DNA of 63,624 nt, the filler included, from Actinomycetota bacterium (lineage in GTDB: Bacteria > Actinomycetota > Acidimicrobiia > IMCC26256 > VFJJ01): NCBI GenBank assembly GCA_009886115.1. It is 4 parts of 4 records of this genome, joined end to end, with 100 filler letters (N's around TTAATTAATTAA, not from the genome) between each part and the next. Parts side by side here need not be neighbours in the genome. Positions count along the whole stretch, not along the records: positions 20,471 to 50,530 come from VFJJ01000200.1; 3 more parts are not named here. The stretch is one strand, 5' to 3'. The notes beneath the pieces are model-generated. The model had not been told where the DNA came from, did not search any database, and saw only the letters and a list, made by a program, of their open reading frames with translations. The stretch's first letter is position 1, and each line of letters opens with the position of its first letter. This document shows, piece by piece, positions 42,332 to 50,630 of the stretch. A program made the position numbers and the translations under genes.

Positions 42332-42427
42332 GTCCTTTAGTGCCTCTCGGGCTCTGTGTGCCGCTCGGGCGCTCATTCGCTACCAGTTACCAGTTACCAG
42401 TTCGAGGTACCAGCTTCCGGCGAGCGT

Positions 42428-42955
42428 CTAGATGCGTTCGCGGAGCTGATCGAGACGGTGGCGCACGGAACCGTCGATCACGGTGTCGCCGATGCGGGCC
42501 ACCAGCCCGCCCATCACCGTCGGGTCGACGATCACCTTGACCTCGATGCGCTTGCCGGTCTTGGTCGAGAGCGCCACCTCGAGCCGGGCCACCTGGTCGG
42601 CGTCGAGGGCGATCGCGGATCGCACCTCGGCCACCTCGTGGTTGCGTTCCTCGGCGGCGAGTCTCACGAACGCGTCGACGACAGCGCCGAGATCGCGGCC
42701 CCGACCGGTGCCCACGACGAACGCAGCGAGCTGCGTGCTCACCGGGTGCGCCGCCTGGCCCATCAGCTCCTCGACGATCGCCATGCGGCGACCGGCCGGA
42801 AGCGTCTGGTCGGTGATGGCCTTGCGCAGCTCGTCGTTTGCGTCGACGGCGCGGGCGAAGCGGAACAGCTCATCCTCGGCCGAGCTCAGCGCGTTCTCGG
42901 CTGAGGCGATGGCGAAGAATGCCTGGGCGTAAACCTGCGTGCGTTCATCCGACAT
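42428..42955 (-). CDS. atpH: ATP synthase F1 subunit delta
   Basis: YAQAFF, VRSAIAL, VDPTVMGGLVARIGDTVIDGSV. Confidence 0.95.
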   Translation of the reverse strand: MSDERTQVYAQAFFAIASAENALSSAEDELFRFARAVDANDELRKAITDQTLPAGRRMAIVEELMGQAAHPVSTQLAAFVVGTGRGRDLGAVVDAFVRLAAEERNHEVAEVRSAIALDADQVARLEVALSTKTGKRIEVKVIVDPTVMGGLVARIGDTVIDGSVRHRLDQLRERI

Positions 42956-42962
42956 GGCGTCC

Positions 42963-43709
42963 TCACACGCTCCGGCTCAGATACTCGTCGACCACGCCCT
43001 GGCTCGCCGTGGCGTCGACGGTGCGTTCGACCACCTTGGAGGCCAGCTCCACCGACAACGCGGCGATCGGTGCCCGGAGCTCGATCATGGCCTGCTCGGT
43101 GGACGCCCGTACGGCTGTGGACGTCCGTTCCCGCTCGGCCGCGGCGTCGGCCTCGGCGCTGGCCATGAGATCCCGGCGAACAAGGTCTGCTTCGGCGCGG
43201 GCCTGCTCGAGGATGACGTTGGCCTCGGCCCGGGCCGCCGCGACAGCCTTGTCGTACTCGGCGACCACGGTGACGGCCTGGGTGCGAGCCTGCTCCGCAC
43301 CCTCGAGATCGCCGCGCACCTTGGCCTCACGGGCTTCGACGATGCTGCGGAGGCGAGGAGCAGCGAAGGTCATCATGAAGATGGCGACGAGCCCGAAGAG
43401 GATCACCGCCCAGATCAGCTCGTTGAGCTGGGGTAGGATCGGGCTGGGCTTGTCGGCACAGTCCTCGATCGATCCACCGGTCTCGATGATCTCGAGGCAT
43501 TCCTGCTCGTCGGGGCCGAGTGGAGCTACGGGCTCGTGCTCGGCGTCCTCCCCGGCGCCCTCAGGCTCGTCAGCGGGCGCCTCGGTCGTCGTCTCGGTGG
43601 TCTGGCCGTGGGCGACACCGCCGGCCGCCAAGGCGACGACGGCCCCGGCCATGATCGTCGAGACCAGTAGGAACCGCACTCTGCGCATGAACTGCAACTC
43701 CTGGCTCAT
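42963..43709 (-). CDS. atpF: ATP synthase Fo subunit b (second copy) with N-terminal extension
   Basis: TM helix then PRL...REAKV and an Ala/Glu coiled coil; LSVELASKVV; operon position. Confidence 0.9.
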   Translation of the reverse strand: MSQELQFMRRVRFLLVSTIMAGAVVALAAGGVAHGQTTETTTEAPADEPEGAGEDAEHEPVAPLGPDEQECLEIIETGGSIEDCADKPSPILPQLNELIWAVILFGLVAIFMMTFAAPRLRSIVEAREAKVRGDLEGAEQARTQAVTVVAEYDKAVAAARAEANVILEQARAEADLVRRDLMASAEADAAAERERTSTAVRASTEQAMIELRAPIAALSVELASKVVERTVDATASQGVVDEYLSRSV

Positions 43710-44491
43710 CAGTTCTGCCGGTTGCCGACCTGCTCGATGTACCGCTCCACCAACGCCCGCTGCGTGTCGAGGTCGAGGCTGCGCTCGACGACTCGCTCGG
43801 CCACATCGACCGAGAGGCCCGTCACTCGGGTGCGCAGGTCGGCCTGGGCCCGCTCCGACGCCAGACGGGAATCGGCGGTGGCTCGCGCCCGGGTCGCCGC
43901 GGCATCGGTCTCGGCTCGGGCGACCAGCTCGCGGCGTAGCACCTCGGCCTGCTCCCTGGCCTCGGCCAGGATGCGCTGCCGCTCGGCACCGGCATCACCG
44001 ACGCGCCCCTGAGCCTCAGCGAGCACAGCGACACCCTCGGCTCGCGACTGCTCGGCCCGCTCGATCTCGCTTCGGATCCGCTCGGTGCGCGCCGCCATGG
44101 CCTTCTTGGCGGCCGGCCCGGCGAACTTCACCATCATCGACGCCACGACGACGAAGAAGATCGATCCCCAGATGATCTCGTTGGTCTCGGGGAGGAACTT
44201 CTTCGGCGAGCTGTGACAGTCCTCGACGGTACCGCCCTCGTTGAGGAGGTGGAGACACTCCTCCTGGAAGGGGTCGAGCTCGACACCTTCCGCCGGCACC
44301 GTGGCGCCCTCGCCCTCCTGGGCACCGGCGGCAACACCGAATGGACCGGCCAGGGCCAGGAGCGCCACTGCACCCACGGCCAGGGCGGTACGGACAGCGC
44401 GCCGGCCCGAGGGCCGCGCCCGGCCGGGCAGTGCCGAGGCGCCGAACGGCTCCATGGTGTCTGTCAACCGCATCGTGTCGGTCAACCGCAT
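43709..44491 (-). CDS. atpF: ATP synthase Fo subunit b/b' (first copy) with N-terminal extension; start may be 44455
   Basis: EIIWG TM helix, RTERI, coiled coil, LSVDVAERVV, QRALVERYI. Confidence 0.9.
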   Translation of the reverse strand: MRLTDTMRLTDTMEPFGASALPGRARPSGRRAVRTALAVGAVALLALAGPFGVAAGAQEGEGATVPAEGVELDPFQEECLHLLNEGGTVEDCHSSPKKFLPETNEIIWGSIFFVVVASMMVKFAGPAAKKAMAARTERIRSEIERAEQSRAEGVAVLAEAQGRVGDAGAERQRILAEAREQAEVLRRELVARAETDAAATRARATADSRLASERAQADLRTRVTGLSVDVAERVVERSLDLDTQRALVERYIEQVGNRQN

Positions 44492-44498
44492 CGTCGGC

Positions 44499-44840
<342 letters not shown>

Positions 44841-45599
44841 TCAGTGCTCGGGGTGCAGCGATTCGTTGAGGTACACGGCGGTCAGCATCGTGAAGATGTA
44901 CGCCTGGAGCACGGCCACCAGGATCTCGAAGCCGGTCATGGCGACGCCCAACAGGATCGGCCCTGGGAGCGCGATCGCCGTCGGCTCGGTGATCCACAAA
45001 GCGGCACTCATGATCGCGGCCAGCGTCAACAACACGTGACCGGCGACCAGGTTGGCGAACAGTCGAACTGCCAGCGAGAACGGCCGGACGAGGAACACCG
45101 AGAACAGTTCAATGAACCCCACCAGCCAGCGCAGGGCGAGCGGGACGTTGCGGGGCCAGACGATGTGGCCCAGGTAGGCGAAGCCCTGCTTCTTGAATCC
45201 CATGAACACCATGAGGATCCAGGTCAGAATGGCCAGCAGGCCGGTGAGCGCGATGCGCGACGTGGCGGGGAACTGGATCACCGGGATGATCGACCAGATG
45301 TTGCAGAAGAAGATGAAGAAGAACAACGCTGACAGGTAGGGAGCCCATTTGCGCCCGGCGTGGCCCATGACCTCGCCGGCAATGTTCTTCTCAACGAGTT
45401 CGAAACCGGCCTCGGCCACGTTCTGCAGGCCGGTCGGCACGAGCGCCCGGGGCCGCGTGCCCAGGCCGAAGACGACCAGCACGCACAGCGTGGCCAGCAC
45501 CATGATGATGGCGGTCTTGTTGAACCCGGCGCCGAACGCCTGCCACTCGAACAGGTGGCTGACCGGCGGGACGTCGAGGGCGAGCACGTGCACCGTCAC
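44841..45599 (-). CDS. atpB: ATP synthase Fo subunit a
   Basis: PTGLQN, RPFSLAVRLFANLVAGH, LQAYIFTML. Confidence 0.97.
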   Translation of the reverse strand: MTVHVLALDVPPVSHLFEWQAFGAGFNKTAIIMVLATLCVLVVFGLGTRPRALVPTGLQNVAEAGFELVEKNIAGEVMGHAGRKWAPYLSALFFFIFFCNIWSIIPVIQFPATSRIALTGLLAILTWILMVFMGFKKQGFAYLGHIVWPRNVPLALRWLVGFIELFSVFLVRPFSLAVRLFANLVAGHVLLTLAAIMSAALWITEPTAIALPGPILLGVAMTGFEILVAVLQAYIFTMLTAVYLNESLHPEH

Positions 45600-46033
45600 T
45601 CCTTCACCGCTGGGACGGGGGACGGCCGGCGCACGCGCAGGCCGGGTTCGGCGAACGAGAGCCGCACCGAGTGCAGCTCCCAGAACAGCAGCGCCAGGTG
45701 GGCGATGGCCATGGTGATGACGAGCGCCTCGATGTCGATGAAGCCAACCTCACGCAGCGCGAAGGCCGAGCCGAACATCACGGCGATACGGATGATGTAA
45801 CCCCCGAGCACGGCACCGCCCGCGACCCCGGGGGAGATCGACGCGCCCCACGACTGCAGCGCAGCAGCCGCCAAGAAGTTCCCGAGCACGATGGCCATGG
45901 CAATGGCCGCGCTCCACGCGCCGTCGGCGCCCCGGATCAGACCGGCGACGACGACGACGACCGGTGACGCGAGCAACGCGTGCCGGGCGAGATCACGGGC
46001 GATCTGACGCTCTACGGCCGGGACCTGGTCCAC
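45596..46033 (-). CDS. atpI: ATP synthase protein I
   Basis: Four hydrophobic segments, GYIIR; immediately upstream of atpB. Confidence 0.8.
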   Translation of the reverse strand: MDQVPAVERQIARDLARHALLASPVVVVVAGLIRGADGAWSAAIAMAIVLGNFLAAAALQSWGASISPGVAGGAVLGGYIIRIAVMFGSAFALREVGFIDIEALVITMAIAHLALLFWELHSVRLSFAEPGLRVRRPSPVPAVKE

Positions 46034-46281
46034 GGCTTTCCCTTCTCCTGCACGGTCATCGAGATGGCGTAGGCGAAGTACACCCGGGCCACCGCGCCGA
46101 CCACTCCACCGACGAGCAAGATGACGAACAGCACCGGACGGATACCGAACACACCGTCGAGCCACCATCCGAGCAGCCCGAACAGGGTGGGAACGACCAC
46201 CAGCTCGATCGACAACGACAGGCCATCGCCCATGCCGCCGTAGCGCGCCTGGCGCTGTGCGTGCTGGTCGGCCTGGCTCAT
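46012..46281 (-). CDS. AtpZ/AtpI-family small membrane protein
   Basis: LFGLLGWWLDGVFGIRP (GxxxDxxxxxxP) motif; first gene of the atp operon. Confidence 0.85.
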   Translation of the reverse strand: MSQADQHAQRQARYGGMGDGLSLSIELVVVPTLFGLLGWWLDGVFGIRPVLFVILLVGGVVGAVARVYFAYAISMTVQEKGKPWTRSRP

Positions 46282-46335
46282 GCGCGTCGCTACTCCCCGT
46301 GTGCAAACGCAGGCAACGCCCCATGGCGAAGCGGC

Positions 46336-46353
46336 TTGTGAAACCACGCTCAA
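46336..46353. promoter_or_regulatory. Possible Rex operator upstream of the atp operon
   Basis: TTGTGAA-ACCA-CGCTCAA versus consensus TTGTGAA-N4-TTCACAA (11/14 matches). Confidence 0.4.
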
Positions 46354-50530: not shown

Positions 50531-50630
50531 NNNNNNNNNNNNNNNNNNNNNNNNNNNNNNNNNNNNNNNNNNNNTTAATTAATTAANNNNNNNNNNNNNN
50601 NNNNNNNNNNNNNNNNNNNNNNNNNNNNNN
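50531..50630. other. Artificial contig spacer
   Basis: Ns with central TTAATTAATTAA. Confidence 0.98.

Follow-up and report, generated by a model that had tools for sequence, protein, structure and literature searches.

Known b subunits and the two b genes of the window

Subunit b of F-type ATP synthases is usually treated as a simple membrane anchor and stalk, with almost nothing outside the membrane. We analysed a 63,624-nucleotide stretch of DNA, filler included (hereafter the window), in which positions 20471-50530 are a single contig of the 5.4-Mb draft genome of a member of the Acidimicrobiia. The window carries two adjacent atpF genes, b1 and b2, and the b subunits that they encode have a signal-peptide-like leader and a conserved pair of cysteines ahead of the membrane anchor. 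We think it reasonably probable that such a b subunit is made as a Sec-type precursor whose leader is cleaved, and that the mature protein carries an exported, disulfide-closed knob beside its anchor, which would serve as a structural or assembly brace.

The b subunits of E. coli and Bacillus PS3 (6oqr_X, 6n2y_b1) resemble the window's proteins in having a single anchor, a long helical stalk and a gene located between those for c and delta, and the profile of the window's family aligned to them from the anchor to the C-terminus (E = 1e-25 to 1e-32). However, they lack a leader, and the part ahead of their aligned anchor comprises only about 8-12 residues, whereas the window's proteins have ~100 extra residues. 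The mycobacterial enzyme (7njk_b, 7jg5_b, 7jg5_d) is likewise an actinobacterial enzyme with two different b-type stalk proteins, b and the b-delta fusion. In its chain b the aligned anchor is preceded by about 35 residues, and to our knowledge this N-terminus contains neither a cleavable leader nor a Cys pair. In contrast to the mycobacterial fusion, delta is a separate gene in the window and neither b is fused to it. With the NCBIfam B/delta model the window's two b proteins obtained 36 and 46 bits, far under the cut-off of 328.

For a b-type subunit that carries a presequence, the closest precedent is chloroplast CFo-II (b', nuclear-encoded; 6fkf_p), in which the presequence likewise stands ahead of a single anchor and the aligned part begins at residue 97. 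The presequence of CFo-II is an organelle import signal, whereas that of the window's proteins would be a bacterial export leader. Cleavage of the hydrophobic part of the CFo-II presequence takes place in the lumen, and the short lumenal tail of the mature protein is not known to contain Cys. The title of a 1994 paper by Michl et al. speaks of bipartite presequences. In the review PMC8790069, CFo-II is described as a single-span subunit that is inserted directly into the thylakoid membrane, and M13 procoat as a protein whose insertion depends on YidC. The layout of procoat, with a cleavable leader, a short acidic exported segment and an anchor with basic residues inside, is the same as that proposed here, but procoat has no homology to the window's b proteins, and the loop of the window's family carries a conserved Cys pair. 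A further conserved Cys pair in an F-type subunit is that of chloroplast ATP synthase gamma, where a redox-regulated disulfide under thioredoxin control lies on the stromal F1 side. This is a different subunit, and the opposite side of the enzyme from that predicted for the pair in the window's b.

When the family profile was compared with solved structures, 26 distinct PDB b chains were matched, all from profile position 78 onwards (anchor and stalk), and none of these 26 covered the leader or the ectodomain. An initial reading of the window made without database searches (the sequence-only reading) had known of no b/b' pair with an exported Cys-containing domain, and indeed no solved b structure covers such a domain. 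The literature within reach of our search, outside which most subscription journals lay, yielded no b subunit equipped with either a bacterial signal peptide or a Cys domain outside the membrane, and a review of the Tat pathway made no mention of such a b subunit. It is well supported by sequence comparison that the window's proteins are members of the b family that are set apart from all solved b, b' and b-delta proteins by a leader and a putative outer Cys domain.

The two genes and their anchors are given below; A1 is an alignment of 27 full-length homologues in b1 numbering, and A3 an alignment in b2 numbering.

43709..44491, minus strand: atpF copy 1 (b1, 260 aa, P0001), putative subunit b precursor; PF00430 match of 71.7 bits at residues 106-235
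42963..43709, minus strand: atpF copy 2 (b2, 248 aa, P0002); PF00430 match of 70.6 bits at residues 98-227
44108..44176, minus strand: transmembrane anchor of b1, about residues 106-128; W108 and F113 invariant in A1
43350..43418, minus strand: transmembrane anchor of b2, about residues 98-120, from alignment A3; the Pfam match begins at residue 98

Both proteins are real F-type ATP synthase b subunits. They scored far above the PF00430 cut-off of 28 bits, and both passed the TIGR01144 cut-off of 65.5 bits (74.7 bits for b1 and 81.3 bits for b2). Each has one anchor followed by a long helical stalk, and AlphaFold2 predicted the b1 anchor as a long helix with a pLDDT of 83-96. Their genes lie between those for c and delta in a complete atp operon on the minus strand, with the order a, c, b1, b2, delta, alpha, gamma, beta. 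About 100 N-terminal residues of b1, and as many of b2, fall outside the Pfam ATP-synt_B match. The sequence-only reading had called the genes tandem atpF paralogs and delta a separate gene, and both descriptions were correct: the two adjacent open reading frames (ORFs), each matching b-family models, are 41% identical over 201 residues with the Cys motif inside the alignment, and an OSCP match for delta is found at 42428-42955. No other b genes were found in the whole genome.

Leader, predicted ectodomain and cysteine pair

The segments ahead of the two anchors are as follows.

44321..44491, minus strand: leader of b1, residues 1-57, with a long Arg-rich n-region, a hydrophobic core and GVAAGA before Q58; predicted signal peptide
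43605..43709, minus strand: leader of b2, residues 1-35, ending in VAHG before Q36
44177..44320, minus strand: predicted mature ectodomain of b1, residues 58-105, consisting of an acidic linker, the Cys knob and the Pro-rich tether SPKKFLPETNE
43419..43604, minus strand: predicted mature ectodomain of b2, residues 36-97, very acidic, with a net charge of -16 (54 residues scored)
44216..44260, minus strand: Cys motif of b1, ECLHLLNEGGTVEDC, residues 78-92, with Cys79 and Cys92; C79, G86 and C92 invariant in A1
43458..43502, minus strand: Cys motif of b2, ECLEIIETGGSIEDC, residues 70-84, with Cys71 and Cys84; C71, G78 and C84 invariant in A3

Both leaders show the features of a Sec-type signal peptide, with a basic n-region, a hydrophobic core (the uncharged stretch of b1 is 24 residues long) and small residues at positions -3 and -1. 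The predicted cut sites are A55-G56-A57/Q58 in b1 and A33-H34-G35/Q36 in b2, so that the basic-hydrophobic leaders do end in AGA-Q and AHG-Q, as had been noted from the sequence. The same layout recurs in 79 of 83 distinct Cys-pair N-termini: behind a K/R-rich n-region comes an uncharged stretch of 20-28 residues that includes a hydrophobic core, then a small-x-small ending, which is preceded at a short distance by a Pro or Gly and followed immediately by acidic residues. The only leader positions conserved to at least 90% in A1 are R34, A55 and A57, of which A55 and A57 are the -3 and -1 residues. Conservation of an Arg and of small -3 and -1 residues is typical of a signal peptidase I site and not of a conserved membrane helix, and we infer that the leaders are Sec-type signal peptides that signal peptidase I could cleave. 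The signal-peptide-like leader of the sequence-only reading is supported by these features, and with a leader of this kind the Cys pair is predicted to lie outside the cytoplasm. A Tat signal peptide was considered as a candidate and rejected, as only one Arg is at least 90% conserved and many leaders (MRIHR, MKIRK, MRIQR, MRLRHK) have no RR.

A different fate of the leader would be retention as a first transmembrane helix, which would make b a protein of two membrane helices with an external loop that holds the Cys pair, resembling the two-helix membrane hairpin of mitochondrial subunit b. With 20-28 residues, the uncharged stretch could cross the bilayer as an uncleaved helix, and the basic n-region would be inside under either arrangement. 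We nevertheless consider retention unlikely, because conservation within the leader is limited to one Arg of the n-region and to the small -3 and -1 residues. The hydrophobic core shows no sequence conservation and is interrupted by the Pro or Gly ahead of A-x-A. In addition, the long forms of the family have a conserved SGE[ST][VI]GxC right after A-x-A, as would be expected of a mature N-terminus.

Downstream of the predicted cut, both b1 (ectodomain net charge -8, 42 residues scored) and b2 have the acidic linker and then the Cys pair before the anchor that the sequence-only reading had described, with the motif about 15 residues ahead of the anchor in each. The spacing had been misread, being C-x12-C and not C-x10-C in both ECLHLLNEGGTVEDC and ECLEIIETGGSIEDC. 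That reading depended on the cysteines being conserved, and both are invariant in 56 diverse module sequences (mean column identity 33%), in the 27 full-length homologues and in 26 long-form sequences. Exactly two cysteines were present in 82 of 82 ectodomains scored, a set whose selection pattern demanded the pair; no Cys occurs in the short b forms. After the predicted cut, the median ectodomain length was 46 residues and the median net charge -11, with 79 of the 82 being net negative.

The arrangement of the two cysteines points to a hairpin within one chain. The distance from the second Cys to the anchor is constant (C-x-x-A-P-N-P-x-L-P-E-T-N-E), that from the first Cys to the second varies from 12 to about 76 residues, and length differences are concentrated midway between the two; the loop as a whole ranges from 29 to about 80 residues or more. 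AlphaFold2 predicted the b1 module as a helix at 4-14 (with Cys9), a turn, a helix at 19-24 (with Cys22), a linker and the long anchor helix (mean pLDDT 81), and a long form as helices at 6-20, 25-29 and 32-42, Cys9 and Cys41 being close to the open end (mean pLDDT 75). On the strength of these three observations, namely the fixed second and variable first Cys, the indels between them and the predicted helix-turn-helix, a within-chain hairpin is favoured over a link between chains, and the two cysteines would form an intramolecular disulfide.

If inter-chain disulfides, or a metal site shared between chains, instead joined the cysteines of two b chains (b-b, or b1-b2), the ectodomains would act as an external staple of the stator dimer. 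There are two b chains per enzyme, and hence four cysteines close together; the Pro-rich tether, at about 13 residues, might be long enough to reach from one anchor to the other; a variable spacing also fits a parallel dimer with Cys1-Cys1' and Cys2-Cys2' bonds; and in short forms a His is often found two residues past the first Cys. This arrangement is improbable in our judgement, since the monomer is by itself a helix-turn-helix in AlphaFold2, the indels cluster where the tip of a hairpin would be, and the paralogues of the congener G001 differ in spacing (12 versus 14). The His is moreover not conserved and is missing near the b2 motif, and on these grounds a conserved metal site with His was rejected as a candidate as well.

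In the model that we favour, the leader and the anchor would insert together as a hairpin, much as in procoat, and the acidic stretch between them would be moved outside the membrane. The leader would then be cut after A-x-A/G, before Q58 in b1 and before Q36 in b2, and the mature protein would have an exposed N-terminal ectodomain of about 45-60 residues, the anchor and the usual cytoplasmic stalk. The ectodomain would form a small helix-turn-helix knob next to the membrane, closed by a same-chain disulfide of the two invariant cysteines and connected to the anchor by a Pro-rich tether (xAPNPxLPETNE). Given that b anchors in solved enzymes flank subunit a, the most likely position of the knob is the outer face of Fo, next to subunit a. 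Our conservative guess for its role is that of a structural or assembly brace for the stator. Comparison of the a subunits of carriers (70 sequences) and non-carriers (9) gave 5 discriminating columns, none of them an obvious outer-loop partner, in a comparison that is confounded by phylogeny and has a small non-carrier group. A Foldseek search of the module model against the PDB gave no match at E <= 0.001 (best E = 5), and an ESM Atlas look-up of b1 residues 30-125 returned generic b clusters only, with best scores of at most 0.82.

Besides the bilayer-spanning length of the leaders and the variable Cys spacing, several observations speak against this model. The unusually long, Arg-rich n-region of b1 (22-34 residues), with the sequence GRRAVR, is a somewhat Tat-like exception, and the pLDDT of the ectodomain was only 58-79. 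The module is absent from 12 of 40 genomes of the same order, and is thus not essential to the enzyme. Furthermore, the usual thiol oxidases are hard to trace. VKOR was found in none of 41 genomes of the order (the window's genome and 40 relatives), and DsbB was not found in the window's genome. Thioredoxin_4 (DsbA-like) was present in 11 of the 41 genomes, the window's genome not among them, and the sole DSBA match of the latter was weak and interrupted by a TGA. Finally, the screen of exported proteins described next covered only 75 proteins and used GC3-selected ORFs (GC3, GC content at third codon positions) and our own crude signal-peptide rules.

A preference for even Cys numbers is the pattern of organisms that pair the cysteines of their exported proteins. 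Among the 75 predicted exported soluble proteins of the window's genome, 16 had no Cys, and the numbers with one to eight were 13, 22, 1, 11, 0, 5, 0 and 5, respectively. This gives an even to odd ratio of 43:14, versus 275:385 in 833 cytoplasmic-type ORFs (Fisher p = 1.1e-6). The bias gives moderate support to the view that the b pair is a disulfide made by an unrecognised route, and these Acidimicrobiales may use such a route for disulfide formation.

The knob could also have a more active role. The acidic ectodomain, tethered at the outer mouth of the a/c interface in bacteria without an enclosed periplasm, might supply protons to the entry half-channel, acting as an antenna that collects them or as a local buffer, or reduction of the disulfide might switch the enzyme according to the redox state outside. 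We give either role only a slight chance; nothing here points to a reversible regulation of the b Cys pair of the kind known from chloroplast gamma. If one of them were true, the stator would have gained a functional module on its outside within a clade of Acidimicrobiia, and we know of no bacterial ATP synthase with such a module.

Taxonomic range, duplication and gene setting

To follow the module through other genomes, every b locus found by a search of 40 genomes of the same order was read. In 28 of these genomes, b carried a leader and two cysteines before the anchor, and the remaining 12 had a b with a short Cys-free N-terminus. Among named public records the pair was present at 55 of 59 loci, and all 59 belonged to Acidimicrobiia or Acidimicrobiales, in a scan whose pattern (PE[TR]NEIIW) was biased towards the module's family. 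The named carriers include the cultured Aquihabitans sp. G128 and Actinospongicola halichondriae, as well as metagenome-assembled genomes of Iamia and Microthrix. In other orders of the class, 37 b loci comprised 2 with a leader and the pair (L109, L113), 4 with the pair and no clear leader (the second copies L098 and L132, and L108 and L122) and 31 that were short and Cys-free; 20 of the 37, examined as a second batch, had been chosen for long open frames, which favours finding extensions. L098 and L132 come from b/b' genomes; in these second copies the N-tail is acidic and contains two cysteines ahead of the anchor, and a leader is not recognisable. They could represent a form of the module that lacks the leader, or an evolutionary forerunner of it.

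Outside the class, no match to the module profile starting before model position 16 was found in 112 sampled Actinomycetota genomes (six of them flagged as unpublished), and the two b loci from outside the class that were read and parsed were both short and Cys-free. A global profile search returned 801 of 1.84 billion representatives of 50%-identity clusters at E <= 1e-3, of which 176 were at E <= 1e-10. Within the best 149 new representatives the Cys pair was present in 112, and the spacings among these proteins were 12 (51 proteins), 13 (11) and 14 (6), with others up to 76. The taxonomic mapping by motif profile that the sequence-only reading had proposed therefore identifies the module as a trait of many Acidimicrobiia that is found in none of the 112 genomes from outside the class.

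As a separate observation, the short Cys-free b proteins of the order formed one clade (support 88; loci L015, L017, L020, L021, L043, L047, L065, L133, L136, L139 and L142) that was nested among the module-bearing b proteins, and one genome (G016) had a module-bearing b and a short b on different contigs. Possible explanations are one loss followed by later spread, the presence of a second operon, or contamination. Judged by sequence comparison, the module is an old trait of a large clade of Acidimicrobiia in which b is normally a single-copy gene.

Tandem module-bearing b genes were found only in the window's genome and in its congener G001 (L006/L038). In a FastTree phylogeny of 139 b cores, b1 paired with the b1 of the congener and b2 with its b2 (support 98 each), and deeper nodes had a support of 58; the CC/no labels on this tree came from a pattern match and include some false positives caused by an open frame upstream of the real start. 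Since 28 of the 40 genomes carry the module and tandem copies occur only in the window's genus, the module is older than the duplication and independent of it. The duplication would have taken place in, or before, the window's genus, with the module carried along. As in b/b' systems, b1 and b2 are adjacent paralogous b genes in one operon, and the b' models NF005607, NF009988 and NF006293 scored b2 at 44.9, 51.6 and 23.6 bits versus cut-offs of 131, 186 and 118, with lower values for b1. The idea that the leader and the Cys pair serve as a device ('staple') of a b-b' heterodimer, as originally proposed, is not supported, because the module is found mainly with single-copy b.

The possibility that the extension is an annotation artefact, with the real start downstream and the leader and Cys motif being an untranslated open frame, is effectively excluded: long spurious open frames are common in GC-rich genomes, and at many of the loci the frame stays open far ahead of the real start, but the GC3 pattern of the extension is that of coding sequence, the leader features and the Cys motif are conserved at the protein level over dozens of genera, both upstream starts abut the preceding gene, and there is no in-frame start between the motif and the anchor. 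The GC3 of the extension was 0.83 in b1 (first 95 codons) and 0.86 in b2 (first 88 codons), versus 0.88 and 0.87 for the rest of the respective gene; that of the whole b1 gene was 0.86. No in-frame ATG, GTG or TTG occurs in residues 66-115 of b1 or in residues 28-101 of b2, so that initiation downstream of the Cys motif would have to occur within the anchor, with loss of the invariant PETNEIIWG segment. True starts located beyond the motif, which would have undone the sequence-only reading, are thus not borne out.

As to the starts themselves, the first ATG of b1 lies 7 nt past the stop of c, and the ATG of b2 overlaps the b1 stop by one base (TGATG). The b1 gene has three in-frame ATGs (M1, M7 and M13) that stem from an 18-nt tandem duplication. 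This repeat, an 18-nt unit present 2.3 times at 44453-44494 on the minus strand, encodes MRLTDT-MRLTDT-M at the 5' end of b1, is not found in the b1 of the congener (L006), and leaves b1 with an unusually long Arg-rich n-region. In b2, a second ATG (M8, at 43688) has an AGGAG 9 nt upstream, and the leader that results begins with MRRVRF, as in relatives. Because of this AGGAG we prefer M8, which is likely the true start of b2, and the start at 43709 may be 7 codons too long.

The remaining features of the operon region are listed here.

44841..45599, minus strand: atpB (subunit a), PF00119 match of 198.7 bits; the expected membrane neighbour of the b anchors
44499..44771, minus strand: atpE (subunit c), PF00137; directly upstream of b1 and cysteine-free
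42428..42955, minus strand: atpH (delta), a separate gene with a PF00213 OSCP match of 144 bits
46012..46353, minus strand: AtpZ-like ORF, PF09527

A match to the Cg1360 family (ATP-synthase-associated) was seen inside the ORF at 45596-46324 on the minus strand, covering residues 120-221 only. This ORF and the AtpZ-like ORF at 46012-46353 overlap in different frames, and the true start of the former is probably well downstream of 46324. A heptamer, TACCAGT, is repeated ~4.9 times at 42381-42413, within the 51-nt spacer between delta and alpha and just upstream of the alpha start codon. A run of N at about 50531-50575 marks the end of contig C56, the window being joined from more than one contig.

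Significance for the ATP synthases of Acidimicrobiia

The carriers of the module are widespread and mostly uncultured Acidimicrobiia from soil, freshwater, marine and wastewater habitats, relatives of Iamia and Microthrix among them. With Aquihabitans sp. G128 and Actinospongicola halichondriae there are also cultured carriers, which make the predictions of the proposed model directly testable. If confirmed, the knob would be a new element on the outer face of a bacterial Fo, and b would be a natural stator subunit that needs processing by signal peptidase. The module would in addition provide a clade marker for these ATP synthases.

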